From: an uncultured Eubacteriales bacterium
Lineage (GTDB): Bacteria; Bacillota; Clostridia; Oscillospirales; Oscillospiraceae
Assembly (NCBI GenBank): GCA_900552475.1
Contig: USAC01000001.1
Span: 8,444-72,443 of the forward strand
Direction: 5' to 3'
Length of the DNA stretch: 64,000 nucleotides
The notes below the pieces were generated by a model. That model did not search any database. It was given only the letters and a program-made list of their open reading frames with translations, and had not been told where the DNA came from. This document shows, piece after piece, positions 1 through 44,432 of this stretch. Both the position numbers and the translations under genes were made by a program. How positions within the stretch are numbered: position 1 is the stretch's first letter; every line of letters starts with the position of its first letter.

Positions 1-853
1 TTACGGCGGCCTGAGCGAGTGCATCCACATCGACGACGTCGACATGATTGTCGAGGGGCCGCACGGCCCGCTGCCCGCGGCGAAGTCGCCGCCCGCGTCC
101 GAGGAGGAGATGAAGATCGCCGAATACGTCGTGCAGAACATGGTCGACGGCTCGACGCTCCAGCTCGGCATTGGCTCGCTGCCGAACGCGGTGGGGCAGA
201 TGATCGCGCGCTCCGACCTGCGCGACCTTGGCATCCACACGGAGATGCTCTGCGACTCGTACCTCGACATGTACAAGGCGGGCAGGATCACGAACCGCAA
301 GAAGAAGCTCGACCGCTATAAGAGCATCTTCGGCCTTGCGGTCGGCTCGCCGGATCTGTACGACTGGATCCGTGAGAACCCCGGCGTCGTGACCTACCCC
401 ATCAGCTACTGCAACGACCCGAGCAACATCGGGCGGCTGGATAATTTCGTCTCCATCAACAACTGCATCTCCGTCGACCTGTACGGACAGATCTGCGCGG
501 AGAGCTCCGGCACGCGCCAGATCAGCGGCACCGGCGGCCAGCTCGACTTCCTCGAGGGCGCGGCCCTCTCGCCGGGCGGCAAGGCCTTCATCTGTCTGAC
601 GTCGTCCTTTACGAACAAGAAGGGTGAAATGGTCTCGCGCATCAACCCGGTGCTCACCCCCGGCGATATCGTCACCGACCCGCGCAGCCTGGCCTACTAC
701 ATCGTGACGGAGTACGGCGGCGTGAACCTCGTCGGCTGCAGCACGTGGGAGCGCGCGGAGCGCCTGATCTCCATCGCACACCCGAAGTTCCGCGACGAGC
801 TGATCTCGAACGCCGAGAAGCAGGGCATCTGGATCCGCTCGAACAAGCGCTGA
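1..853 (+). CDS. Acetyl-CoA hydrolase/transferase family protein (butyryl-CoA:acetate CoA-transferase-like), C-terminal part; 5' end lies outside the window
   Basis: ORF 44..853 continues in frame to position 2. The GTGGQLDFLEGAAL...FICLTSS motif is typical of the AcetylCoA_hydro C-terminal domain. Confidence 0.7.
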   Translation, partial: YGGLSECIHIDDVDMIVEGPHGPLPAAKSPPASEEEMKIAEYVVQNMVDGSTLQLGIGSLPNAVGQMIARSDLRDLGIHTEMLCDSYLDMYKAGRITNRKKKLDRYKSIFGLAVGSPDLYDWIRENPGVVTYPISYCNDPSNIGRLDNFVSINNCISVDLYGQICAESSGTRQISGTGGQLDFLEGAALSPGGKAFICLTSSFTNKKGEMVSRINPVLTPGDIVTDPRSLAYYIVTEYGGVNLVGCSTWERAERLISIAHPKFRDELISNAEKQGIWIRSNKR

Positions 854-893
854 CGACTACCAAAATTTGACATTCTCTGCACATCCACTACAT

Positions 894-941
894 AAAGCAG
901 ACATCCCCGGTCAGAAATGACTGGGGATGTCTGCTTTTCGT
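894..941 (+). terminator. Rho-independent terminator hairpin plus T-tract
   Basis: aagcagacatccccggtcag...ctggggatgtctgcttttcg. Confidence 0.6.
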
Positions 942-1081
942 GCTGCTTTGCGCCAAATGACGGGTAAATTACTAATTTTGTAAGGATCAATCATATATTA
1001 TATCATTGACATGTCAAGAAACTATTGTGCAAATTAGTAATTCTTGACAGGAAATAAACGATCCGATTTAGTAGATTTTTC

Positions 1082-1110
1082 TTGAAAGCGGGGCCGCGGC
1101 GTGCTACTAT
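1082..1110 (+). promoter_or_regulatory. Sigma-70-like promoter TTGAAA-17-TACTAT upstream of the adhesin gene
   Basis: Hexamers and 17-nt spacing read directly from the sequence. Confidence 0.4.
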
Positions 1111-1183
1111 GGGAGCAAGAAGCGGCCGACGGCGAACACAGAGAGAAAAAAGGCCGCACACATTTCGACAGGAGGTAGATCTT

Positions 1184-4100
1184 TTGAAGAGAACACTCAA
1201 TCGGATCCTTGCGCTCGGCATGGCGATCTGCATGCTTCTCTCGCTTGTGGTCGTACAGGCTTCGGCCGCGACGACGACGGACGGGCTGCAGAGCCAGATC
1301 AGCGCGGCGGCCGGGTCAAGCGTGCAGATCGTGCTCGACGGCGATGTGACGCTCGACCAGACCATCCAGATCCCCGCCAAAACGGCCGTCACCATCACGA
1401 CGGACGGCGCGGCGCGCACCGTCAAGCGCGGCGAAGGGCTGACGGCGGCGATGTTCAACGTTCCCGCCGGCTCCACGCTGACGCTCAGCGGCGGCGAGAG
1501 CCGCCTTGTACTCGACGGCGCGTCCGTCAAGGCTTCGGCCGCGATGGTCACGAGCGCGGGCACGCTGGAACTGACGAACGTGGACGCGAAGAACGCCGTG
1601 AACTCCAAGACCGGTGGCGCGGTCTATCTGACCGCGGGCAAGCTCAGTGTCAGCGGCTGCAGCTTCACCGGCAACTCCGCCAAGACCGGCGGCGCGATTG
1701 ACACCAAGACGAAGGTGGGCATTCAGATGACCGTTGCGGACAGCACCTTCTCCGCGAACACCGCAACGACCAACGGCGGCGCCATCAACCTGATGGATAC
1801 CAACACCATGACCGCGACGAACACGGCCTTCACCGGCAACAAGACGACGAAGTCCGCGGCCAACAAGGGCGGCGCGGCGGTCTATGTCGCGAACACCAGC
1901 GCGAGCTTTGACGGTTGTACCTTCACCGAGAACACCGTCGCCGGGAATACCGACAGCGTCGGCGGCGCGCTGTGCTTCTACGCCGTGAGCGCGAGCCAGA
2001 CGGCCATCACCGTCAGCGGCAGCACCTTCACCGGCAACACCGCGCCGAACGGCGGCGCGATCGGCCTGTCCGACAGTGGCAGCTTCCGCAGCGGCCGGGC
2101 GATCGTGAACTGGACGGACTGCTCCTTCACCGGCAACAGCGCGGCAGGCAAGGGCGGCGCGATTGCCATTCCGTACAGCTGTGAGAACGCGATGCACTGC
2201 GTCGTGACGCTCAGCGGCTGCACCTACAGCGGCAACACCGCCGCGCAGGAGCCGGATTTCTACAGCGCGGACAAGCTCAACATCACCGTGGACGGCAAGG
2301 TGCTCGACCCGAGCACTACGACCGGCAACCCCAACTACGTCGCCTATACCGATGTCTCCGTCGTCCCGAACGTGACGGACAGCGCCGGGACGGCGCTGCC
2401 GGATCTGGCGGGCATGGCGGTCGTGGGCGACTATGCCTACTCCGTCAAGCTCAAGACGGCCGCGAAGCCCAGCGGCGACACGACGAACTATCACCGCGGC
2501 GAGCACGCGACGCTCTGGCGCACCGATCTCAAGACCGGTGAGACGGTTCAACTCAGCGAGGCCGTGACGAACGCGGACTACGTCACCTACGTTGGCCACG
2601 CCAACGGCGTCGCGGGCGCGCTGGAAAACGGCGAGCACTATCTCTATGTCGCGACGCTCCTCGTGGGCGATGCGTCGCAGGACATCTACGCGGTCGTAAA
2701 GCTGCACATGAGCGGTACGACCTTTGAGAAGGTGGGCGAGTATGTCATCATGGAAAACGGCATCTCCGCCTCCAAGTCCGGTATCGATGTCCTCAGCGTT
2801 GACGCCGGCAAGACGACCCTTCTGCTTAAGACCGGCGGCACGTTCTATACCGCCGAGGTGCCCCACGACCAGACGAGCGGCGAGCTCACGGCCGTGACGC
2901 GCTTCAGCATCAACACCACCGGCGTCTCCCTGACGACCGGCGCGGTGCTCGACGTCACTGGTTGGACGTGGCAGGATTGCGGCTATCACGACGGGCGGCT
3001 GTATGTGCCCGTGTGCAAGGGCGCGAGCACGGTCGTCGCCGTGTACTCCATCCTCAATGAGGACGGCACCGTCAAGAGCGGCGCGCTGTCTCCTGATAAG
3101 GACTGCTCCATCCAGATCGGCGATGTGAACCACCGCGTCGTCGAGGTGGAGAGCTGCGCCGTCTATGACGGGAAGCTCTACTTCAACGCCAACCGCACGC
3201 TCCCCGACGGCGGCAAGGACTGCGACTGCGTCGCGTGGACGGCTTTGCCCCCCGCGCCCGTGATCGAGAAGCCCGACGAGAACCCCGCGCAGGATGCGCT
3301 GGTGGCGAAGATCAACGCCGCCGCGGGCTCGAGCGTCGTGATTACGCTGACGGAGGACATGACCATCACGTCCCCGATCTCCATCCCCGCAAGCACCGTC
3401 GTGGAGCTGAAGACGGACGGCAAGGCCGTCACGCTTACCCGCGGCGAAAAGCTCACGGAGTCGCTCTTCAACGTCCTCGATGGCTCCACCCTGAAGATCA
3501 CCGGCAGCGATGATGCGCGCATCACGGTTGACGGCGCGTCCGTCGAGGCGACCGCCGCCATGATCGCGAGCGCCGGGGCGCTCGAGCTGACGAAGGTGGA
3601 TCTCAAGAACGCCGTCTCCGCCGGTGCGGGCGGCGCGGTCTACATGACGAAGGGCACGCTGACGTCCACCGACTGCCGCTATGAGAACAACCGCGCGTCC
3701 ACCGGCGGCGCCGTCGACGCGCAGAAGAATGCCAAGGTGCGCATGGACTTCATCGGCGGCAGCTTCACGGACAACACCGCCAAGACAACCGGCGGCGCCG
3801 TGAACCTGATGGACGGCAACACGCTCAGCGCGAAGAACGTCACCTTCCGCGGCAACAAGACCACGGCCTCCGCAGCGAACAAGGGCGGCGGCGCGCTGTA
3901 TGTGGCGAATACTGCCGCGAGCTTTGACGGCTGCACGTTTGACAGCAACTCCGTGACCGGCAAGGCCACGAGCACGGGCGGCGCGATCTGCTTCTACGCG
4001 CTCGGCGCGTCCGGCGCAAAATGCACGGTAAAGGACTGCACCTTTACGGGCAACAGCGCCCCCATCGGAGGTGCGATGGCGCTCTCCGACAACGGCGCGG

Positions 4101-4549
4101 TGCGCAAGAACGGCGCGTCCGTCGACTGCGAGAACGTGACCTTCACGAACAACACCGCCGACAAGGGCGGCGCGATCGGTATCCCGTATGACTGCGTAAC
4201 GAGCCTGAGCTGCTCGCTGAACCTGACGGACTGCACATTTGCGGGCAATCAGGCCGCCGAGGGCAGCGACATCTACAGCGTCTCCGAGGCGGGCATCACG
4301 ATCAAGCAGACCGAGAAGCCCGACCCCAAGCCTAATCCCGATCCGGATCCCGTCGACCCGGAACCCGATCCTGATCCGGCGGATCCCAAGCCGACCGAGC
4401 CCGCTGCTCCGGTTGCGCCGGAGACCCCGGCAAAGCCCGATCAGTTCAAGACTGGCGACGAGAGCCATCTCGCCCTCTGGGGCGCGCTGGCCCTGACCGC
4501 CGCTGCGGGCGCAGCCGTCTGCACGCTGCGCAGAAAAGAAGAAGCGTAA
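1184..4549 (+). CDS. Large secreted parallel beta-helix repeat protein (PMP-type GGAI/FxxN repeats), tandemly duplicated, with C-terminal sortase-like sorting signal
   Basis: TTG start 8 nt after a GGAGG RBS, followed by a signal peptide (LKRTLNRILALGMAICMLLSLVVVQASAA). Many FTGN/GGAI repeats and two homologous ~500-aa modules. A Pro/Asp-rich linker, FKTGD, a hydrophobic stretch and an RRKEE tail follow. Confidence 0.85.
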   Translation: MKRTLNRILALGMAICMLLSLVVVQASAATTTDGLQSQISAAAGSSVQIVLDGDVTLDQTIQIPAKTAVTITTDGAARTVKRGEGLTAAMFNVPAGSTLTLSGGESRLVLDGASVKASAAMVTSAGTLELTNVDAKNAVNSKTGGAVYLTAGKLSVSGCSFTGNSAKTGGAIDTKTKVGIQMTVADSTFSANTATTNGGAINLMDTNTMTATNTAFTGNKTTKSAANKGGAAVYVANTSASFDGCTFTENTVAGNTDSVGGALCFYAVSASQTAITVSGSTFTGNTAPNGGAIGLSDSGSFRSGRAIVNWTDCSFTGNSAAGKGGAIAIPYSCENAMHCVVTLSGCTYSGNTAAQEPDFYSADKLNITVDGKVLDPSTTTGNPNYVAYTDVSVVPNVTDSAGTALPDLAGMAVVGDYAYSVKLKTAAKPSGDTTNYHRGEHATLWRTDLKTGETVQLSEAVTNADYVTYVGHANGVAGALENGEHYLYVATLLVGDASQDIYAVVKLHMSGTTFEKVGEYVIMENGISASKSGIDVLSVDAGKTTLLLKTGGTFYTAEVPHDQTSGELTAVTRFSINTTGVSLTTGAVLDVTGWTWQDCGYHDGRLYVPVCKGASTVVAVYSILNEDGTVKSGALSPDKDCSIQIGDVNHRVVEVESCAVYDGKLYFNANRTLPDGGKDCDCVAWTALPPAPVIEKPDENPAQDALVAKINAAAGSSVVITLTEDMTITSPISIPASTVVELKTDGKAVTLTRGEKLTESLFNVLDGSTLKITGSDDARITVDGASVEATAAMIASAGALELTKVDLKNAVSAGAGGAVYMTKGTLTSTDCRYENNRASTGGAVDAQKNAKVRMDFIGGSFTDNTAKTTGGAVNLMDGNTLSAKNVTFRGNKTTASAANKGGGALYVANTAASFDGCTFDSNSVTGKATSTGGAICFYALGASGAKCTVKDCTFTGNSAPIGGAMALSDNGAVRKNGASVDCENVTFTNNTADKGGAIGIPYDCVTSLSCSLNLTDCTFAGNQAAEGSDIYSVSEAGITIKQTEKPDPKPNPDPDPVDPEPDPDPADPKPTEPAAPVAPETPAKPDQFKTGDESHLALWGALALTAAAGAAVCTLRRKEEA

Positions 4550-4553
4550 AATA

Positions 4554-4590
4554 AAGGGAACTGACCGCGGCAACGGTCAGTTCCCTTTTG
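4554..4590 (+). terminator. Rho-independent terminator
   Basis: aagggaactgaccgcgg/caacggtcagttccctttt. Confidence 0.7.
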
Positions 4591-4710
4591 CGTGCCGGAT
4601 ACGGTGAAAACTGCAGATCTGCGCTGTCATGCGTTCTTGACAAAATACTTGCATGACCGCACAATATTACTTATAATAGCAATATAAGACAGAAGGAGGG
4701 GGAAGCGGCC

Positions 4711-5706
4711 ATGAACGAACAGGGAATCTGCATTCTGTTTTCCATTCTTCTTGTTCCGGTAAATTTTCTCTGCGCTTTCTGGCTTTTTCGGGAAGCGCTG
4801 CAGCTGACGGGGATGACGTATCAGGAGTATTTCAAAAAGACTTCCTCCGACGGGGAGGTACTGCTCGGCAGCGAACAGCGCTGGGGGTATACGAATCGTT
4901 TTTTCAAAGCGTACAGCTCCGATCCGGAGAAATCCATGCACTTCATGAAAAGCTATGCGGCGGCGTTGCTGCCCGGCTTGGCCGCGGTGCTCCTTCTGTG
5001 TTATACGGAGGCGCATGCGGAGCGGCTGTCGGGCGTTCTGATTGGGGATTTTGCGCTGTTGGCCGTGAATGCCGCGCTCGCGCTGGCGGGCGTGCTTTAC
5101 AGGAGAAGGCATCCGATGGATCCCGCGACGGCGGAGCGGCTTCGCGAAAAGCGACGGAAGGAACGGGCGTATAACAGAAAGCATTGGAAAAAAATCGCGG
5201 TGAGGGGCACCGTATGCGCCGCCGTTCTGCTGCTGATTCTGTATATTTTTGTAGGCGGCACATTGAGATCGCTGTGGCAGCAGCCCGCGCAGACGGAGAC
5301 GCCGCGCAGCGCGATGCTGTCCGAACTTCTGCAGGAGCGGGGCTACGAAACAGAGAACGTTTCGCTCACCTACCGGTGGGTGGTGGATGATCCTCTGCAG
5401 GCGGCGGGTGGAGGAGAAAAGGACGGCAACCGGTTTGAGCTTTACCGGTATGCGGACGAAGAAACGGCACGCCGGGCGTATGGTCAGGTTGTGAACCTGA
5501 TCGCCCCGGAGATGGAGAGTGCGGCGCGCGCAAGTCATCAGATAGAGCTCACGGGCGGCGGCAGTATGTTTACCGTCATCTTAGATGGGGTGTATTACCT
5601 TGCGCTGACCCGAAACAGCGACGTAATTTATGCGTGCTCGCCCGATTCCCTGCAGGAAGCCAATGCGATTCTGGCCGATATCGGGTATCTGCACGGTAAA
5701 TCATAA
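4711..5706 (+). CDS. Hypothetical membrane protein
   Basis: AGGAGGG RBS, several hydrophobic segments, no recognisable family. Confidence 0.55.
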   Translation: MNEQGICILFSILLVPVNFLCAFWLFREALQLTGMTYQEYFKKTSSDGEVLLGSEQRWGYTNRFFKAYSSDPEKSMHFMKSYAAALLPGLAAVLLLCYTEAHAERLSGVLIGDFALLAVNAALALAGVLYRRRHPMDPATAERLREKRRKERAYNRKHWKKIAVRGTVCAAVLLLILYIFVGGTLRSLWQQPAQTETPRSAMLSELLQERGYETENVSLTYRWVVDDPLQAAGGGEKDGNRFELYRYADEETARRAYGQVVNLIAPEMESAARASHQIELTGGGSMFTVILDGVYYLALTRNSDVIYACSPDSLQEANAILADIGYLHGKS

Positions 5707-6866: not shown

Positions 6867-7018
6867 TTTTTACAGGAATTTGCTTTTAACGGCACAATCT
6901 TCCAAAAACCGGTAGACACCCGCCTGTTTCGCGTGCTATACTGATACTATCTGTCAGTATGTGTATTCCCGGAAAACCGGGAAGCGTTTGAGAGAGATCT
7001 ATCAGATGGGGTGATACG

Positions 7019-9421
7019 ATGAAATCCAGAAAACGGGCCTATTCCATCGCGCTGTGCTGCCTTCTGGCGGTCACGGTGCTGCTGCCGGGCCTGGTGTTCC
7101 TGTTTGCCGGGGCGACGGCGGCGGACGATCAGGAGGAATCCCTGCTCGGCACGCTCAGCGCCCAGTTCGAGGCGAGCAGCCCGGGCATGGTTTCGTCCGG
7201 GACGGGCGACCTCGGCGGAAAGTCCTACGGCGCCTATCAGTTTGCCAGCCGCTATGACACGCCCAAGGCGTTTTTCGAGTGGTGCCTGCAGCAGGACGAT
7301 ACATATTACCGCTCCGTGGGCGAGCGCCTGCAGGACGCATACTACAGCGGCGGTGCGGGCTACGGCACGAATTTCGACAACACGTGGCGCGCGCTCAACA
7401 ACGAGGACAGCGCGGGCTTTCTGCGCGTCCAGCGCAACTATGTCCGCCTGAGCTACTATGAGCCGATCGTCGCGAAACTGGAGGCAAACGTCCCCGGCTT
7501 CTCCGCGGACGATTACAGCATCGCCCTGCGCAACGTCCTCTGGTCGCGCGCGGCGCAGCACGGGACGGGCGGGGCCTACAGCGTTGTCACGCGCGCCTTC
7601 GCGGCGCTGGGCGGCTTTAAAAACCAGCCCGAGGCCGAGCTGATCGACGCGATTTACGCCGAGAGCGGCCGCCTGACGACGGACGCCGCCACCACCATGA
7701 GCGGCACGACCGCCGAGCGCTACGGCGTCAGCGGAAAGGCACTGGCGTACTACACGGGCTGCTCGGGCGAGGTGCAGCTCGGCGTCTACCTGCGCCTGCG
7801 CGTCAACGAGCCCGCCAAGGCGCAGGCCATGCTCGCGCAGTACGGCTATGCCGATGCCGTCATCGACGAGGGTGTCTACCGCATCCAGCCCTCCTCCAAC
7901 ACGAACCTCAGCGCCGTCGCGGGCAGTACATCCGTCTCGCTCAACGGCGTGGCCGACAGCGATGCCCAGCGCTTCCAGCTGACGTATTACGCGAGCGGCT
8001 ACTATGCCATCACCTGCCGCGACAGCGGCCTGCGGCTCGCAGCTGCGAGTGACGGCAGTGTCACGATGGAAAAGCCCGCCGCGTCAGAGAGCCAGATGTG
8101 GCGCCTCGCGTGCTATAACAGCGGCTTCTCCATCCAGAACCGCGCCACGGGGCAGTATCTCGCGGCTTCGAGCTATGCCGCGGGCGGCAGGCTCCAGACC
8201 GCGCAGAGTGCCTACCAGTGGCAGGTCGCGCTCGCCGCGGGCGGCTGGTCGCTCGCCGGCGCGAGCTACCCGACCTATGCCAGCGGCCTGACCGAGGGTG
8301 CGTCGTCCTACCCCTTCCGCGGGACGCTGCGCTGCTCGTACCCCATCTCCCGCGTGGAGGTCAGAATCCTGAACGCTGCGGGCGGCGACGCCATCACCCC
8401 GGCCACCGCTTCCCCCGGCAGCAAGAGCTTCGATCTCTCGAGCCTTGACAACTCCGTCGCCTTCAGCCGTCTGCGCGCGGGCGGCTATACCCTCGTCATC
8501 ACCGCCGAGAGCGGCGCACCGACCGACGGCACGTTCCGTTTGGAGTCTCCCTTCTACGTCTCCGGCGACGGCTTCACTGTCACGTTCGATCCCTGCGGCG
8601 GTACCTGCGGCGAGGCCAAGCGCGCCGTCTATGCCGGTCAGTGCTACGGCGACCTTCCCACCGCGGCGAAGGACGGCTGGACATTTGACGGCTGGTATAC
8701 CGCGCCCGAGGGCGGCAGCCGCATCGACGGGGCGGACATCGTCACTGCCGGTGACCACACGCTCTACGCGCACTATTCCCGCGAATACAGCTATGTGTTC
8801 TATAACTACGACGGCACCGCCGTCTCCTCCGGCCGCCTGGCCGCCGGGGAGGAGATCCCCGCACCAGACCAGACCCCGTCCCGCCCGTCCGACGGCACGT
8901 ATTACTATGTCTTCACCGGCTGGAGCGGCTACAGCGCGGGCATGACCATCTCCGACAACGTCTCCTTCACCGCGGCGTATGAGGCGCACGAGATCGTCGG
9001 CGAGCCGGATCAGATCATCACCTCGGCCTATGTCATCCGCGACGGCTGGCTGCGCCGCATCCCGCTCGGCACCACGACGGCGGAGGTGCAGAGCGGGCTC
9101 ACGCCCTCCTCCGGCATCACCATCCACAAGGGCAGCGCCCCGGCCACCGGCCTTGCCGGAACGGGCATGACCGTGGAGTATACGCGCGGGGGCGAGGTCG
9201 TGCAGACCTTGACGATGGTTGTCACGGGCGACCTCAACGGCGACGGCCGCTTGGATATCAGCGATGTCGTGCAGCTGCAGGGCAGTCTGCTCAACCGCGT
9301 GACACTCAGCGACGCCGCAGCACAGGCGGCGGACGTCAACGGCGACGGCCGCATCGATATCAGCGACATGGTACAGATGACCGCCGCGCTGCTCGGGCGC
9401 AGCAGCGTCAAACCCAACTGA
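7019..9421 (+). CDS. Secreted multidomain protein: N-terminal lysozyme/SLT-like domain (weak), ricin-B lectin domain, two Listeria-Bacteroides repeats, C-terminal type-I dockerin
   Basis: Signal peptide. QxW motifs (AQRFQL, SQMWRL, YQWQV). DGWTFDGWYT-type repeats. Dockerin duplicated motif DLNGDGRLDISDVV...DVNGDGRIDISDMV. Confidence 0.8.
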   Translation: MKSRKRAYSIALCCLLAVTVLLPGLVFLFAGATAADDQEESLLGTLSAQFEASSPGMVSSGTGDLGGKSYGAYQFASRYDTPKAFFEWCLQQDDTYYRSVGERLQDAYYSGGAGYGTNFDNTWRALNNEDSAGFLRVQRNYVRLSYYEPIVAKLEANVPGFSADDYSIALRNVLWSRAAQHGTGGAYSVVTRAFAALGGFKNQPEAELIDAIYAESGRLTTDAATTMSGTTAERYGVSGKALAYYTGCSGEVQLGVYLRLRVNEPAKAQAMLAQYGYADAVIDEGVYRIQPSSNTNLSAVAGSTSVSLNGVADSDAQRFQLTYYASGYYAITCRDSGLRLAAASDGSVTMEKPAASESQMWRLACYNSGFSIQNRATGQYLAASSYAAGGRLQTAQSAYQWQVALAAGGWSLAGASYPTYASGLTEGASSYPFRGTLRCSYPISRVEVRILNAAGGDAITPATASPGSKSFDLSSLDNSVAFSRLRAGGYTLVITAESGAPTDGTFRLESPFYVSGDGFTVTFDPCGGTCGEAKRAVYAGQCYGDLPTAAKDGWTFDGWYTAPEGGSRIDGADIVTAGDHTLYAHYSREYSYVFYNYDGTAVSSGRLAAGEEIPAPDQTPSRPSDGTYYYVFTGWSGYSAGMTISDNVSFTAAYEAHEIVGEPDQIITSAYVIRDGWLRRIPLGTTTAEVQSGLTPSSGITIHKGSAPATGLAGTGMTVEYTRGGEVVQTLTMVVTGDLNGDGRLDISDVVQLQGSLLNRVTLSDAAAQAADVNGDGRIDISDMVQMTAALLGRSSVKPN

Positions 9422-9439
9422 CGAGAAAGCAGGTACCCC

Positions 9440-11059
9440 ATGAAATTTTGGAAAAAGCAGATTTTCTCCCTGCTCGCAGCGCTCGCGGTGCTCCTGACCC
9501 TCGTGCCGCAGCGGGCTGAGGCCGCAAGCTGCGGCCTCAGCGGTGCAGGCAGCGTGCGCGCGGGCAATACCGTCACTGTGACGTTCAGCATCAGCGGCGG
9601 CGATATTCTCGGCTTCGAGGCCGACCTCTCCTATGACAGCAGCCAGCTCAGTCTGGAGGGATCAAAGTCCCTCCTCGGCAGCAGCTGGACGGTCAAGATG
9701 AACGGCAGCCGCATCGTCGGCTATGACAGCGAGCAGAGCAATCCCATCAACGGCTCAAAGCAGGTGATGGCCTTCACCTTCCGCGTCAAGAGCGGCGCTT
9801 CCGCAGGGAGCAGCCTTTCTGCCGCGGTGAGTGGCGTCTCCGTCTCCTATATCCGCAGCAGCGACGGCAACGCCGTGACCGTTGACGCAGGCTCCGCCCG
9901 CTGGAGCGCGTCAGTCTCCGCCCCGCTGTCCGCCAACGCGAACCTCGCGGCCCTTTCCTGCGCCAACGCAGAGCTCTCCCCGACGTTTTCCGCCGGGACG
10001 ACGCAGTACAGCGTGACCGTACCCTATGATGTGACGAGTCTGCGCCTGTCCGCTTCGGCGGAGGACGGCGGCGCGAAGGTCTCCACCTCCGGCAACGACC
10101 TCTCCGTCGGGGCGAACACCGTGACCATCACCGTCACCGCGCCGAGCGGCGCCGTGAAGCGCTATACCATCTCCGTCATCCGCCAGCCGGACCCGAACTA
10201 CACCGCATCGACCGACGCGGCGCTCTCCGCGCTCACCGCGAGCTATGGGGAGATCAGCCCGGCCTTCACCTCGGACGTGACGGACTATGTCCTCTACGTC
10301 CCCCATGAGACCGAGCACATCACCCTCAGCGGCACCGCCCGCGACGGGAAGGCCGTGCAGGTCACCGGCGCGGACGCCGCGCTCGACGAGGGCGAAAATG
10401 TCCTCACCGTCACCTGCACCGCCGAGGACGGCGTGACCGTCATGACCTACACGGTGCATGTCTGGCGCATGCCCGCCTACGCCGGGACGCTGCCGCAGAT
10501 CATCGTCCCGACGGACACCGTCGAACCCGACCAGCCCGCGCAGGAGGATGCCTCGGCGCTCTCCGCGCTGTGGGCGAGCCTGTGCGCACCGTTTGTGCTG
10601 CCGTTTGGCGGCTGGACGGTGCCGCTCTATGCCGTGGCCGCGGCGGCGATGGTGCTGCTTCTGCTGCTCCTGTTCCTGCTGGGGCACCTGATCGGGCGCA
10701 GGCGCGGCCGCCGCAAGGCCCTGCACCAGCTGGAGCAGACGCCCGATGCCATCGGCGTCATCCCGCCCGCGGACGAGCCGTCTGCGTCCGACGAGACGCA
10801 CCCTGACGAGCCGCAGCCGGAGGACGGGCCGCAGCCCGTCGAAGAGGAGCCGTCCGCGGAGAACGAGCCGGTCCCGCAGCCGGTAGAAGCGGCACCGACG
10901 GAAGCGTCCGCCGCGCAGGAGGAGCCTGCGGCGGAAGAGCCGTCCGTTCAGCCGGAGCAGACGGAGGAGATGCCCGCGGAACCGTCCCCCGATGACACGC
11001 TAGCGGATCTCGGCGACATCTCGCTGGATGATCTGCTGAACGATATTCGGAATATGTGA
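9440..11059 (+). CDS. Membrane-anchored cohesin-domain protein with two cadherin-like beta-sandwich domains, a TM segment and an acidic Pro-rich cytoplasmic tail
   Basis: Signal peptide. Cohesin-like segment VTVTFSISGGDILGFEADLSYDSSQLSL. Repeated ANLAALS...YSVTVPY...RYTISV modules. Long hydrophobic stretch followed by RRRGRRK. Confidence 0.7.
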   Translation: MKFWKKQIFSLLAALAVLLTLVPQRAEAASCGLSGAGSVRAGNTVTVTFSISGGDILGFEADLSYDSSQLSLEGSKSLLGSSWTVKMNGSRIVGYDSEQSNPINGSKQVMAFTFRVKSGASAGSSLSAAVSGVSVSYIRSSDGNAVTVDAGSARWSASVSAPLSANANLAALSCANAELSPTFSAGTTQYSVTVPYDVTSLRLSASAEDGGAKVSTSGNDLSVGANTVTITVTAPSGAVKRYTISVIRQPDPNYTASTDAALSALTASYGEISPAFTSDVTDYVLYVPHETEHITLSGTARDGKAVQVTGADAALDEGENVLTVTCTAEDGVTVMTYTVHVWRMPAYAGTLPQIIVPTDTVEPDQPAQEDASALSALWASLCAPFVLPFGGWTVPLYAVAAAAMVLLLLLLFLLGHLIGRRRGRRKALHQLEQTPDAIGVIPPADEPSASDETHPDEPQPEDGPQPVEEEPSAENEPVPQPVEAAPTEASAAQEEPAAEEPSVQPEQTEEMPAEPSPDDTLADLGDISLDDLLNDIRNM

Positions 11060-11061
11060 GC

Positions 11062-11102
11062 CATGAGCGCCGGAGACAGTGTCTCCGGCGCTCATTTTGT
11101 TT
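11062..11102 (+). terminator. Rho-independent terminator
   Basis: gccatgagcgccggagacagtgtctccggcgctcattttgtttt. Confidence 0.7.
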
Positions 11103-22733: not shown

Positions 22734-23972
22734 TCAGTAAGTCCAGTCCGCGGAAGAATTAGAGCCGGGGGTGGCGGAGACGGTGCTGCTGTCGGCGTAT
22801 TTCCACTGCTTCATCCATTCGTCATAGCAGACGGCGTCGCCGGGGCAGACGCATTCGCGGCCATAGACGTCCGTTACGACGAGGGCGAGGGTGTAGATAT
22901 GCCCCGCCTCAAGCGTGACGGCGCGCGGCGTACGGAAAAAGCTGCTGTCCCTCGCGTCGGTGTTTGCGTCGGTGTTCGGATCCAGCCACATCACCAGCTT
23001 CTGATCCCGGAACAGACCCATGCGCAGCTGCGCGGGCTCCGAGGGCGTGAGACTGTCCTCGTCGATCCAGCGGGTGATGCTGAACTGCTCGCCTTTGCGG
23101 AGCAGGCTGTTCATTGTGTCGATGGCGAACAGGAGCGGGGTATCATACAGATCATAGCGCGGGAAGCTCGCGCTGTAGAGCCCGGTGTACTGCCCGATGA
23201 GCTGATACTGGCGCGTGTCGCCCTGCACGAAGGCGGCGAGAATGCTGATCTCGTCGTCCGTCAGCGGGCAGGTGACGGACGCCGTATAGCACTGGTTCTC
23301 ACCGAGCGTCCCCTCGGCGGAGACGATCTCCTCGCCGCAGTCGACGGTGAAAACGGCGGTCATGCCGTCGACGTAGGTCTTCGGCGCGGCGCTGAGCGAG
23401 AACGTCACCGTCCCGGCGGCATAGTCGACGGATGCGATGTCCGTGCTCTCGGAGAGTGTGATGTTCACCTGCTGCTCGAGCAGTGAGCGCACCTGATCGG
23501 AGATGGTGCCGATCTGGCTGCCGACACTGTAATTGACGTTATTGAGCGCCTGCTGCAGGTTCTGATAGTCCTGCCGGACGGAACGCAGCTGCCCGAACAG
23601 ATACAGCAGCAGCGCGCACGCGAGCACGCAGCCGAGGACGGCTGGCCAGCGGCGGCGCTTCGGCTGCGCCGCCTGATAGCGCCGCGCCAGCTCCTCCACC
23701 ATCCGCAGCTGCGCCTCGGTCAGCTCACCTTCATCGTCCGCGGGAGCGCCCGCATCGGCGCCCTCCGGGGCGTCTGTCTCCTCGCCGAGGAGCCAGCCCA
23801 CCGAGACGGAGAACTGGCGGCTCAGCGTCACCAGCTTTTCGATCTCCGGCAGCGCCGCGTCCGACTCCCATTTATAGATCGCCTGCCGCGAGACGCCCAG
23901 CTGCGCGCCCAGTTGTTCCTGTGAAAGGCCCAGCGCCTTCCTCCTCTGCGCGATTCGTTGTCCGATGGTCAT
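22734..23972 (-). CDS. Membrane-anchored XRE-family transcriptional regulator with large extracytoplasmic C-terminal domain
   Basis: N-terminal HTH_XRE (GLSQEQLGAQLGVSRQAIYKWE), a single TM helix, then a ~290-aa extracellular domain. AAGGAG RBS. Confidence 0.75.
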   Translation of the reverse strand: MTIGQRIAQRRKALGLSQEQLGAQLGVSRQAIYKWESDAALPEIEKLVTLSRQFSVSVGWLLGEETDAPEGADAGAPADDEGELTEAQLRMVEELARRYQAAQPKRRRWPAVLGCVLACALLLYLFGQLRSVRQDYQNLQQALNNVNYSVGSQIGTISDQVRSLLEQQVNITLSESTDIASVDYAAGTVTFSLSAAPKTYVDGMTAVFTVDCGEEIVSAEGTLGENQCYTASVTCPLTDDEISILAAFVQGDTRQYQLIGQYTGLYSASFPRYDLYDTPLLFAIDTMNSLLRKGEQFSITRWIDEDSLTPSEPAQLRMGLFRDQKLVMWLDPNTDANTDARDSSFFRTPRAVTLEAGHIYTLALVVTDVYGRECVCPGDAVCYDEWMKQWKYADSSTVSATPGSNSSADWTY

Positions 23973-24066
23973 ATGCCCGGCTCCTTTCTCTCTTGTTGGC
24001 CCCACGATACCACGGCGGGGCCGCAAACGCCACCAACCGGGGGATGGAAATCCGTCAACCGGCGGT

Positions 24067-24795
24067 TTACATCGCGCTTTCCGGGAGGGGGAGCGTGCGC
24101 AGCAGCGCGCGGCCGAAGCACGTTGGGCCGGAAACGCTGCCCGTGGGGAACGTGAGCACCTCGCCCGCGGTGCGGTTCAGAGGGAGAAGCCGCACCGCGC
24201 CGCCTTCGCCCCGGGTATACTGCCGCACGAGCATCGCGCCGCCGATGCAGAAGAGCCCCACGTCGCCGTTCGCGAGCGGGGCGTGATGGATGTAGATGAC
24301 GGAGCCGCTTGGAATATACGGCGCCATGGAGTCCCCCTCCATGCGCACGGCCAGCTCCGCGGCGGGCGGCACGTCGCCGGTGACGGTGAGGAGTTCATAG
24401 TCGAGACCGGGAACCGGCGCGGCCGCACCCGCCGCCGCGGGCGAGCGGTAGAGCGGGATGGTGCGCGCGGGCTCGCCCTGCATACGGCACAGCGCGTCGA
24501 GGAGCGTGTGGATGGTCTGCCGCCCGGCGGGGCTGAGGGCGCGGTACTTTTCCACGAGGGTGCGCTCCTCCGGCGACGCGTCGCCGCCCGCGCTCTCGAA
24601 GCTGCCGCGGTAGAGATAGTTTGGCTCGACGTGCAGCGCGTCGATAATCCGGAGGAGAATCTCCTCCTTCGGCGCGCTGACGCCCGTCTCATAGTTGCCG
24701 ACGGCGGACTGCGACACCCCCAGCTGCTTTGCCAGCTCCGATCTGGACAGGCCAAGCTCCTTCCGCCTGCACTTGAGCTGTTCGCCAAAACTCAT
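24067..24795 (-). CDS. LexA/phage-cI-like repressor (XRE HTH plus S24 peptidase domain)
   Basis: HTH (LGLSRSELAKQLGVSQSAVGNYE) and an S24 catalytic region (GDSM...). AGGGAGG RBS. Confidence 0.8.
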   Translation of the reverse strand: MSFGEQLKCRRKELGLSRSELAKQLGVSQSAVGNYETGVSAPKEEILLRIIDALHVEPNYLYRGSFESAGGDASPEERTLVEKYRALSPAGRQTIHTLLDALCRMQGEPARTIPLYRSPAAAGAAAPVPGLDYELLTVTGDVPPAAELAVRMEGDSMAPYIPSGSVIYIHHAPLANGDVGLFCIGGAMLVRQYTRGEGGAVRLLPLNRTAGEVLTFPTGSVSGPTCFGRALLRTLPLPESAM

Positions 24796-24846
24796 GCCGC
24801 ATCCTCCCTTCGACAAGCTCCGACTGATTCCACCTGATGCTACCAC

Positions 24847-25778: not shown

Positions 25779-25863
25779 TGGTGGGGGATGGTGGATTCGA
25801 ACCACCGAAGGCAGCGCCAGCAGATTTACAGTCTGTCCCCTTTGGCCACTCGGGAAATCCCCC
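25779..25863 (-). tRNA. tRNA-Tyr (anticodon GTA), class II with long variable arm
   Basis: Anticodon loop CUGUAAA. GGTTCGAATCC T-loop. CCA encoded. Confidence 0.85.
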
Positions 25864-25875
25864 ATAATATATCAT

Positions 25876-25951
25876 TGGAGCTGGTGGACGGATTCGAACC
25901 CCCGACCTGCTGATTACAAATCAGCTGCTCTACCAGCTGAGCTACACCAGC
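25876..25951 (-). tRNA. tRNA-Thr (anticodon TGT)
   Basis: Anticodon loop UUUGUAA. GGTTCGAATCC T-loop. CCA encoded. Confidence 0.85.
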
Positions 25952-42802: not shown

Positions 42803-43681
42803 ATGAACACCCCAGTGATCGCACTGCTCTATGACTTTGACAAGACGCTCTGCACCACGGACATGGAGGATTACACCTTCATCCCCGCCCTCGGCTATAC
42901 GCCCGGCGAGTTCTGGGGCAGAGCCAACGACTTCGGCCGCGAAAACCGGATGGACGGACTGCTCGCCTATATGTACACGATGATGCAGGAGTGCCGCCGG
43001 CAGGGAATCCGGCTCGACCGGGAGTTTCTGGTGCGCTGCGGCGAGGGGATCGAGCTGTTCCCCGGCGTGCGCGAGTGGTTCGGCCGCATCAACGCCTTCG
43101 GCGCGCAGCTCGGCGTGACGGTCGAGCACTATGTCATCTCCTCCGGCCTGCGCGAGATCATCGAGGGCAGCGGCATCAGCCATGAGTTCCGCGAGATCTA
43201 CGCCTGCGAGTTTTTCTACGACGAAAACGGCCTCGCCTCGTGGCCGAAGCTCGACGTCAACTTCACGAACAAGACCCAGTTCGTCTACCGCATCAACAAG
43301 GGGATCCTCGACGTCGCGCGCGACAAGGAGCTCAACGCCTCCATGCCCGACGACAGCAAGCGCGTCCCCTTCCGCAACATGATCTACATCGGCGACGGCC
43401 TGTCGGACGTCCCGTGCATGAAGATGATGCGCGCCTACGGCGGACAGGCCATCGCCGTCTATCAGGAGGATAACCGCGCCGGGGTGGAGGATCTGCTGAG
43501 CAAGGGGCGGGTGGACTTCATCTTCCCCGCCGACTACCGCGCGGGGATGGGGCTTGATACCACGGTGCAGAACATCATCCGCAAGATGACCATCACCGAC
43601 GCGCTGGCCGAGGAGAATGCGCGCCAGTTCCGCCAGATCGGCAAGAGCGGCCTGCCGTATCAGGCCAGTCTCTTTGAATAA
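42803..43681 (+). CDS. HAD-superfamily hydrolase
   Basis: DFDKTL motif I and IYIGDGLSD motif IV. Confidence 0.7.
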   Translation: MNTPVIALLYDFDKTLCTTDMEDYTFIPALGYTPGEFWGRANDFGRENRMDGLLAYMYTMMQECRRQGIRLDREFLVRCGEGIELFPGVREWFGRINAFGAQLGVTVEHYVISSGLREIIEGSGISHEFREIYACEFFYDENGLASWPKLDVNFTNKTQFVYRINKGILDVARDKELNASMPDDSKRVPFRNMIYIGDGLSDVPCMKMMRAYGGQAIAVYQEDNRAGVEDLLSKGRVDFIFPADYRAGMGLDTTVQNIIRKMTITDALAEENARQFRQIGKSGLPYQASLFE

Positions 43682-43694
43682 CGGAGGATCCGCT

Positions 43695-44432
43695 TTGAAC
43701 AAGAACTACAAACTCACCATCGCCTATGACGGGTCGCGCTTTTTCGGCTGGGAGCGCCAGCCGGGGCGCGCCACGATTCAGGGAAAGCTCGAGACCGTGC
43801 TGGCAAAGCTCACCGGCGCGCCGGCCGATGTGATCGGTGCGGGGCGCACGGACGCGGGCGTTCACGCCCGCGCCATGGTCGCGAGCGTCCGGCTCGATAC
43901 CGACCTCTCGCCCGAGGAAATCCGCGACTATCTCAACCGCTACCTCCCCGACGCCATCGCCGTGCGCGAGGTGAAGGAGGCGGGCGAGCGCTTCCACGCG
44001 CGCTACAACGCGCTGGGGAAAACGTACCGCTACACCTGCTTCGACGGGCCGGTCAAGCCCGTCTTTGACCGGAAATACGTCACCATGCTGGACTTCCGCC
44101 CCGATCTGGAGCGGATGCAGCGCGCGGCGGCGCTGCTCACCGGGGAGCACGACTTCATGAGCTTCTGCGGCAATCCGCGTATGAAGAAGTCTACCGTCCG
44201 TCTCGTCGATTCCATCACCGTGGAGCGCCGCCGTGACCGGATCATCTTCACGTTTCACGGGACGGGCTTTCTGCAGAACATGGTGCGTATCCTCGTGGGG
44301 ACGCTGCTGGAGATCGGCCGCGGCCGCTGGGAGCCGGAGTACGTCCTCGACCTGCTCGCCGCCCGCGACCGTAAGCTCGCCGGCCCGACCGCCCCGCCGG
44401 AGGGACTGTGTTTGATGAAAGTGGACTACTAA
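43695..44432 (+). CDS. truA: tRNA pseudouridine(38-40) synthase
   Basis: TTG start after a GGAGGA RBS. YDGSRFFGWERQ and RTDAGVHA catalytic motif. Confidence 0.9.
   Translation: MNKNYKLTIAYDGSRFFGWERQPGRATIQGKLETVLAKLTGAPADVIGAGRTDAGVHARAMVASVRLDTDLSPEEIRDYLNRYLPDAIAVREVKEAGERFHARYNALGKTYRYTCFDGPVKPVFDRKYVTMLDFRPDLERMQRAAALLTGEHDFMSFCGNPRMKKSTVRLVDSITVERRRDRIIFTFHGTGFLQNMVRILVGTLLEIGRGRWEPEYVLDLLAARDRKLAGPTAPPEGLCLMKVDY

Follow-up and report, generated by a model that had tools for sequence, protein, structure and literature searches.

A putative dockerin-bearing cell-wall hydrolase and its transmembrane cohesin neighbour form a conserved gene pair in gut Oscillospiraceae

The DNA analysed here (the window) is a stretch of 64,000 nucleotides from an uncultured Eubacteriales bacterium of the Oscillospiraceae (assembly GCA_900552475.1, contig USAC01000001.1, positions 8,444 to 72,443 of the forward strand), in which two adjacent genes, termed A and B, encode an exported protein that ends in a dockerin and a membrane protein that carries a single cohesin. 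The window is ordinary chromosome of approximately 63% GC and encodes MutS, MutL, TruA, Fur/ZnuA and tRNAs. Gene A (7019..9421, plus strand) codes for an 800-aa secreted multidomain dockerin protein and gene B (9440..11059, plus strand) for a 539-aa type I membrane protein with the features of a cohesin anchor. Both open reading frames were found on the plus strand where a preliminary description of this DNA had placed them, with a coding-like composition (GC at third codon positions of 0.86-0.88). The intergenic spacer measures 18 nt (9422..9439, plus strand; 12-44 nt at related loci), with the ATG of gene B 19 nt after the last base of gene A. A promoter-like site (TAGACA-18 nt-TGnTATACT; 6913..6942, plus strand) matches the consensus at 10 of 12 positions approximately 77 nt 5' of gene A, and an intrinsic-terminator-like hairpin with a 15-bp stem and a T run (11063..11095, plus strand) begins 4 nt past the stop codon of gene B; the gene 3' of B is convergent and has its own terminator. 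Both signals are consensus matches, which are no evidence of function, and on these matches genes A and B appear to be laid out as a two-gene promoter-to-terminator unit. The two genes are also in-frame, parted by one TGA and five codons (9419-9439), which is probably a coincidence since gap lengths elsewhere are not consistently multiples of three.

The product of gene A begins with a signal peptide (residues 1-34, ...AGATA/ADD; 7019..7120, plus strand), which is the sole hydrophobic segment of the protein and whose ATAADD junction is conserved in the family alignment of A. A lipoprotein was considered and rejected, the lipobox being absent. Residues 43-216 matched the Pfam family T6SS_VgrG3-like_C (PF21277; 96 bits, E 3e-27) and form the core of a lysozyme-fold domain (7145..7858, plus strand) in which conservation across the family extends to approximately residue 280. 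This domain aligned with the C-terminal domain of VgrG3 from Vibrio cholerae (PDB 4noo/4nso, E 4e-6). Two residues that are invariant in the family alignment, E51 (7169-7171, plus strand) and D64 (7208-7210, plus strand), aligned with the Glu and the Asp of 4noo (...KYES...GNGDYGG...) and are putative catalytic residues of A, matching those of VgrG3, which we take to be E827 and D842. A ricin-type beta-trefoil lectin follows (7868..8233, plus strand; Pfam RicinB_lectin_2 in two stretches, E 1.5e-9), and then a region of approximately 110 aa (residues 406-515; 8234..8563, plus strand) that is conserved across the A family and is probably Ig-like, with only a weak FlgD_ig match in Pfam (E 0.023). 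Two Listeria-Bacteroides repeats of the InlB B-type (Flg_new; residues 519-585 and approximately 590-655; 8573..8983, plus strand) were identified by Pfam Flg_new at residues 519-585 (E 3e-16), by NCBIfam TIGR02543 in two stretches and by a match to InlB (PDB 2y5p). Directly 5' of the dockerin lies a small beta/alpha module with an invariant TGM (residues 667-733; 9017..9217, plus strand) that was modelled at a pLDDT of approximately 97 and gave no match in a structure search of the PDB; this module also precedes the dockerin in other cargos. The preliminary description had listed the ricin-B lectin and both Listeria-Bacteroides repeats, and these were recovered; its lysozyme/SLT-like assignment of the N-terminal domain holds for lysozyme in a broad sense and fails for SLT, Pfam placing the domain with VgrG3-C, and its list of domains lacked both the region of residues 406-515 and the pre-dockerin module. 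A metagenomic protein of 560 aa (P0099) is 99% identical to residues 1-355 of A and continues into a sortase-like domain, and is probably an assembly chimera.

The dockerin of A (9227..9394, plus strand) consists of two near-symmetric repeats, each a Ca-loop followed by a helix, and was recognised by Pfam, by a sequence match in the PDB and by its fold. Pfam Dockerin_1 (PF00404) covered residues 737-792 with 37.5 bits compared to a cut-off of 22.9. Two tandem segments of approximately 22 residues, each with a Ca-loop (DxNxDGxxxxxD) and a helix, were present (DLNGDGRLDISD and DVNGDGRIDISD), and the repeats DLNGDGRLDISDVVQLQ and DVNGDGRIDISDMVQMT are near-identical in Ca-loop and helix; their DxNGDGxxDxSD loops start at nt 9230 and 9332, with no further such motif in the 64 kb. 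The dockerin of Clostridium thermocellum Xyn10B (2ccl) was matched in sequence (E 4e-7) and in fold (rmsd 0.7-0.8 Å). Residues 655-800 were modelled at a pLDDT of 95.4 with the three-helix dockerin fold present, and the top 30 PDB matches of the last approximately 65 residues were all dockerins (rmsd 0.7-1.5 Å, 28-39% identity). A type II/III XDoc dyad was rejected, with 0 XDoc among the top PDB fold matches. Pfam, the 2ccl match and the modelled fold thus agree with the duplicated type-I dockerin that the preliminary description had read at the end of gene A (7019..9421).

Gene B encodes a signal peptide (residues 1-28, ...QRAEA/AS; 9440..9523, plus strand) followed by a cohesin module (9524..9919, plus strand) that was identified by Pfam Cohesin, by an AlphaFold2 (AF2) model and by PDB fold matches. 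The AF2 model of residues 28-169, built with an alignment of 29 homologues, is a nine-strand beta sandwich (pLDDT 89.1, pTM 0.81), and in a Foldseek search of the PDB cohesins from five species ranked first (2jh2, 5lxv, 4uyp/4uyq, 5n5p, 2zf9, 7urp and 4fl4; TM 0.63-0.75, E down to 3e-7). Most B orthologues also have a precomputed match to PF00963. The best fold match was a cohesin-like module from Clostridium perfringens (2jh2, E 3e-7), and further matches were ScaC of Ruminococcus flavefaciens (5lxv, TM 0.75), Coh3 of A. cellulolyticus ScaC (4uyp/4uyq), ScaB Coh5 and ScaE of R. flavefaciens, Sca5 of R. bromii and a C. thermocellum cohesin. The preliminary description had staked its proposal on the module encoded from 9440 modelling as a cohesin, and the confident model with cohesins as its top matches bears this out. 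The cohesin is followed by two beta-sandwich domains of the cadherin-like type (residues 171-249 and 262-343; 9950..10468, plus strand; PF12733 in two stretches, 99 bits), which are joined through an extracellular segment (stalk or juxtamembrane) in which W378, P384, G391 and P395 are conserved (10469..10624, plus strand) to a transmembrane (TM) helix (residues 396-419; 10625..10696, plus strand) that is followed by RRRGRRK, in keeping with the positive-inside rule. The acidic, proline-rich and disordered cytoplasmic tail (10697..11017, plus strand) contains 29 D/E and 20 P in the 107 residues beyond the TM helix and is the least conserved part of B. A sortase-type C-terminal sorting signal was rejected, B having no LPXTG and more than 100 residues past the TM helix. 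With a signal peptide, a single cohesin and a C-terminal TM helix, B fits the TM-anchored monovalent type of anchoring scaffoldin, and the earlier reading of a gene 19 nt downstream of A with signal peptide, cohesin, two cadherin-like domains, TM anchor and acidic tail agrees with Pfam and the model.

Homologues of A were numerous, with more than 120 full-length proteins of the same architecture and 40-88% identity from metagenome-assembled genomes (MAGs) of Oscillospiraceae/Ruminococcaceae and from metagenomes, whose annotation goes no further than 'hypothetical' or 'InlB B-repeat-containing'. The pair is common in human and animal gut metagenomes, with 834 to 4883 member sequences in the 90%-identity clusters. 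A scan of loci limited to one genome per species gave approximately 36 distinct loci with a full-length A (36-60% identity), including Oscillibacter sp. CAG:241, Brotocaccenecus cirricatena, Vescimonas and many MAGs. Gene B lies directly 3' of A on the same strand at all of the approximately 36 Oscillospiraceae loci in which the contig continues (gap 12-44 nt, mostly 14-19 nt), and searches with family hidden Markov models (HMMs) gave a single B-type cohesin and a single dockerin per locus within ±7 kb. The homology matches included no natural A-B fusion, and no conserved immunity-like third gene was found beside the pair. In 29-31 of 38 loci the pair has an NMT1-type ABC transporter (ABC_tran, BPD_transp_1, NMT1) directly upstream (e.g., L001:5183-7741), and in 19 loci TruA is found downstream. 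The flanks in the window differ from those of most relatives, the NMT1 transporter being absent beside the pair and TruA lying 32 kb off (43668-44429), which indicates a local rearrangement in this lineage. The pair therefore stays together where its flanks differ, as they do between the window and some of the loci. The NMT1 transporter was considered as a functional partner and is taken as synteny only, given intergenic distances of 260-315 nt and its absence beside the pair in the window. Overall the locus is single and syntenic and looks vertically inherited.

The dockerin and the cohesin also varied together across genomes. In a sample of 33 A/B pairs, the distance matrices of the dockerin and the cohesin correlated at r 0.72, the highest value for either domain, compared to 0.55-0.67 for the dockerin against the other domains of A and 0.38-0.56 for these other domains against the cohesin. 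When 64-column samples were drawn at random 300 times from the remainder of A and compared with the cohesin, the mean was 0.47 (sd 0.07, maximum 0.60), and a partial Mantel test with the other domains controlled gave r 0.53 (p 2e-4). This pattern is suggestive of co-evolving binding partners and is not proof of them. Residue-level mutual information (MI) with average product correction (APC) between dockerin and cohesin, calculated over the 33 pairs, gave no interpretable pattern.

The same gene order was found with other cargos. A phmmer search with the cohesin of B against 1.84 billion representatives returned 288 relatives, almost all with the cohesin right after the signal peptide (approximately residues 28-155) in proteins of 400-670 aa. 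Proteins of approximately 415-450 aa make up a second size class, with a cohesin, two cadherin-like domains, a Pro/Thr stalk, a TM helix and, past the helix, no more than a short, basic tail, an architecture that was checked in 8 relatives. Five of the seven short-tailed anchors with readable upstream DNA had a dockerin-ending gene 11-17 nt upstream, each with a different cargo (anchors of approximately 430 aa from other Clostridia; L163:2134-7287, L169:2021-7344, L171:1457-4459, L166:2-2921, L172:1-2975). These cargos were seven Big_2 with two SH3_3 and a Cadherin-like domain; Transglut_core with LRR_5 and Flg_new; TIG with Big_3; and two truncated proteins. The remaining two, from one syntenic lineage, had a HAD hydrolase upstream and no dockerin neighbour. 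The recurrence of a dockerin cargo followed by a cohesin-TM anchor with other cargos marks a recurrent modular cassette and gives independent support for cognate binding within the A/B pair; these gene orders suggest a general arrangement of a cargo plus a private anchor. A sister family in MAGs of Acutalibacteraceae/Ruminococcaceae combines the VgrG3-like domain with an unassigned middle region, SH3_3 and a dockerin (L043:6989-8731, L045, L047, L048, L054). Its genes often adjoin further dockerin genes of approximately 1000 aa, and a B-type cohesin is absent within 7 kb.

Taken together, we consider it very likely that A and B form a cognate tethering pair, the binding of dockerin to cohesin being what we infer from these patterns. 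Several points weigh against this reading: the Pfam Cohesin (PF00963) score of B itself is marginal (25.5 bits compared to a cut-off of 24.1), the one-to-one exclusivity holds only locally (±7 kb), and a mirror-tree correlation of adjacent genes is suggestive and no proof. The contrary case, in which the dockerin of A and the cohesin of B bind partners encoded elsewhere and their adjacency reflects shared locus ancestry, finds some footing in the lysozyme-SH3-dockerin relatives that have several dockerin genes around them and lack a B-type cohesin in the vicinity, in the two short-tailed anchors that have no dockerin neighbour, and in cellulosomal species, where one cohesin serves many dockerins. 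We nevertheless regard it as very improbable, given strict adjacency at all assessable loci with one of each module locally, a co-variation that is specific for the dockerin-cohesin pair, and a gene order that recurs with unrelated cargos. The 'self-contained two-gene device' of the preliminary description is upheld by the operon layout, the adjacency, the single cohesin and single dockerin within ±7 kb and the co-variation. So is its 'non-cellulosomal use' of the system, as A, B and the 64-kb window together hold one cohesin, one dockerin and no carbohydrate-active enzyme (CAZyme) for plant polymers such as those of the plant cell wall and no carbohydrate-binding module (CBM).

A near-invariant peptide was found at the extreme C-terminus of B. 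The motif (ISLDDLLNDIRNM-COOH; 11018..11056, plus strand) is present in 33 of 34 complete orthologues with the consensus (M)SL(D/E)(D/E)LLxDI(R/K/H)NM, 0-3 residues from the C-terminus, and no other segment of B is as well conserved (0.78); the motif occupies the same place in loci L001-L039 and L061. The tail ahead of the motif spans 64-186 aa across the orthologues and is variable in sequence, with 24% D/E and 15% P. The SLDDLLxDIRNM motif was not found in other open reading frames of the window or of approximately 1 Mb of related loci, and it is absent from the short-tailed anchors that are paired with other cargos, the long tail with its motif being seen only in anchors paired with this hydrolase. 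The preliminary description, right about the acidic cytoplasmic tail, had overlooked this ending. Motifs on which a partner protein docks usually take the shape of a disordered linker with a conserved terminal peptide, and the end peptide of B probably recruits a cytoplasmic partner. Linker and peptide, with its DD-L-DI core, presumably bear a loose resemblance to the C-terminal peptide of FtsZ.

Relatives of the catalytic-type domain of A indicate what it might cut. The VgrG3-like domain is elsewhere fused with LysM (Brevibacillus, Pyrinomonadaceae), with NlpC/P60 (Paenibacillus) and with SH3_3 plus a dockerin (other Clostridia). It is also frequent in viral contigs, with 293 matches that are mostly standalone proteins of approximately 205-220 aa and in some cases lie within proteins of 768-2027 aa (examples in L084-L162, e.g., L095:4995-5633 and L122:4974-5642). 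PHROGs families matching the domain were of 'unknown function' only, and the standalone phage proteins could represent a lysin family that lacks annotation. We rejected the idea that the cassette as a whole came from a prophage or an endolysin, as it is just the N-terminal domain that viral contigs frequently carry and the window is chromosomal DNA of an ordinary kind; full-length A was met in viral contigs once, at a contig end. The C-terminal domain of V. cholerae VgrG3 degrades peptidoglycan (PMC3857813). The homology to VgrG3, the invariant Glu and Asp, the fusions with wall modules and the frequency in phages together point to peptidoglycan as the putative substrate, be it that of the producer or of other cells.

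Action on another glycan (chitosan-like, capsular or host mucin), with the cassette as a minimal foraging or adhesion device like the amylosomes, would suit a ricin-type lectin, which suggests ligands of the Gal/GalNAc type, and organisms that are gut commensals; cohesin-dockerin systems classically serve polysaccharide use, and the fold of the VgrG3 C-terminal domain resembles chitosanases. This appears improbable, considering that the partners of the domain elsewhere are LysM and SH3_3 wall-binding modules and the NlpC/P60 wall peptidase, that the domain is frequent in phages, and that no sugar transporter or catabolic genes are linked to the pair, the conserved upstream transporter being of the NMT1 type.

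We propose that A and B make up a bicistronic surface-display device for which cleavage of the producer's own wall is the most likely job, an assignment made with moderate confidence. A would be exported by Sec, and its type-I-like dockerin would bind the single cohesin at the tip of B, presumably in a Ca-dependent manner. The cadherin-like domains and the stalk of B would hold the cohesin off the membrane, within the wall or at its outer face, and the lysozyme-fold domain with E51 and D64 would thereby be kept on the producer cell together with the glycan-binding modules. The putative job would be to cut, in a controlled way, the glycan strands in the producer's peptidoglycan during wall turnover or daughter-cell separation, and the end peptide of the B tail would recruit a cytoplasmic partner by which the anchor is positioned or regulated. 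Action on the own wall is favoured because the locus behaves as a vertically inherited single core locus, because no immunity gene goes with it and because the tail peptide is restricted to anchors of this cargo.

The relatives of the catalytic domain tell against an own-wall target, since they include antibacterial toxins (VgrG3 of a type VI secretion system, T6SS, and a WXG100 fusion), so that a target on other cells is quite possible. The same tether could then be aimed outwards, with a surface lysin that cuts the peptidoglycan of neighbours in contact antagonism or for the scavenging of wall sugars, and with the ricin lectin and the InlB-type repeats binding the surface of the target cell, a role that a lectin and adhesin-type repeats would suit. 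We see this as the strongest rival, though an unlikely one. The nearest characterised relative is an antibacterial T6SS effector domain (PMC3857813), the Herpetosiphon homologue is fused with WXG100 in a layout like that of type VII secretion system (T7SS) toxins, and dockerin-lysozyme fusions from the rumen have been read as attack or defence (PMC6487960). As for a T6SS effector of the VgrG3 type, A has the VgrG3-like_C domain with its Glu and Asp and neither a fusion to a VgrG spike nor an adjacent immunity gene; it carries a Sec signal peptide and its neighbours are unrelated. Three observations speak for the producer's own wall instead: no immunity gene is conserved beside the pair, the locus is single, syntenic and vertical-looking and not patchy or polymorphic, and the cytoplasmic motif, which anchors of other cargos lack, is hard to square with a passive display anchor.

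A bolder extension of the own-wall reading makes B a transmembrane coupler, whose tail peptide would bind a machine of the cytoplasm (the divisome or elongasome, for example) while the docked hydrolase is placed or switched where and when needed. We hold this to be a doubtful idea; if it were true, it would be a mode of autolysin control not described before and widespread in gut Oscillospiraceae.

Other features of the window stand apart from the pair. A 1155-aa protein (1082-4549) consists of two internally duplicated halves with repeats of the Chlamydia-PMP type, a stalk rich in Pro and Asp, and a TM anchor at the C-terminus; it is another large surface protein, encoded 2.5 kb upstream of the pair, and other genomes do not keep it beside the pair. 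Two adjacent HTH_3 regulators, one with Peptidase_S24 (LexA/CI-like), lie beside a tRNA gene pair (22734-24846 and 25782-25951), and this stretch may be a mobile-element remnant or an integration site.

Several known systems resemble parts of this arrangement. In R. flavefaciens, RflaF_05439 (two NlpC/P60 domains and an XDoc) is bound to the cell-surface cohesin of ScaE (PMC3573020), which likewise puts a putative wall-active hydrolase on the producer surface through a dockerin-cohesin contact. However, that enzyme has a peptidase fold and A a lysozyme fold, and ScaE is sortase-anchored, common to the whole cellulosome and not encoded beside the enzyme, whereas B crosses the membrane by a TM helix, has a cytoplasmic tail and belongs to an operon dedicated to the two genes. 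TM-anchored single-cohesin 'anchoring scaffoldins' with unclear partners have been reported in genome surveys (PMC11557425; bioRxiv 10.64898/2026.02.05.704116), and B shares with them one cohesin, a C-terminal TM helix and an occurrence in Clostridia that are not obviously cellulolytic. It differs in that its candidate partner is encoded just upstream and co-varies with the cohesin, and members of its subfamily also have two cadherin-like domains and a long tail with a conserved end motif. The domain of A and the C-terminal domain of V. cholerae VgrG3 share a homologous lysozyme fold with a conserved Glu/Asp pair; however, VgrG3 is delivered by the T6SS spike and neutralised by TsiV3, whereas A carries a Sec signal peptide and lacks both spike domains and an immunity gene next to it. 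The non-cellulosomal glycoside hydrolase complexes of C. perfringens are a further case of cohesin-dockerin pairing that does not serve cellulose degradation; they join secreted toxin or glycosidase subunits together and not an enzyme to a membrane anchor. By analogy only, the hydrolases controlled by FtsEX (PcsB, CwlO, RipC) show a membrane protein with a cytoplasmic part holding or controlling an extracellular wall hydrolase; unlike these, A/B have no ABC-type FtsEX and no coiled-coil adaptor, their contact is a predicted cohesin-dockerin one and any regulation is speculative.

Non-cellulosomal use of cohesin and dockerin is already established, and dockerin-lysozyme fusions have been noted in rumen metagenomes (PMC6487960). 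The idea is less new than the preliminary description implied, since both dockerin-borne putative wall hydrolases and TM single cohesins have been published (PMC3573020, PMC6487960, PMC11557425). In the open-access literature we found no description of the bicistronic pairing, of its conservation in Oscillospiraceae, of its generalisation to other cargos or of the cytoplasmic motif. If the cognate reading is true, A and B would make a naturally occurring, minimal cohesin-dockerin pair that is one-to-one and in which cargo and anchor are both defined, and such cassettes would be a source of orthogonal cohesin-dockerin pairs for protein engineering. They also suggest a candidate partner for TM-anchored single cohesins, which may often be simply the product of the gene upstream. 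The conserved end peptide of B offers a concrete handle on what controls the system from inside the cell, and the pair as a whole would give a hint at how wall hydrolysis is handled in an abundant and little-studied family of gut anaerobes.

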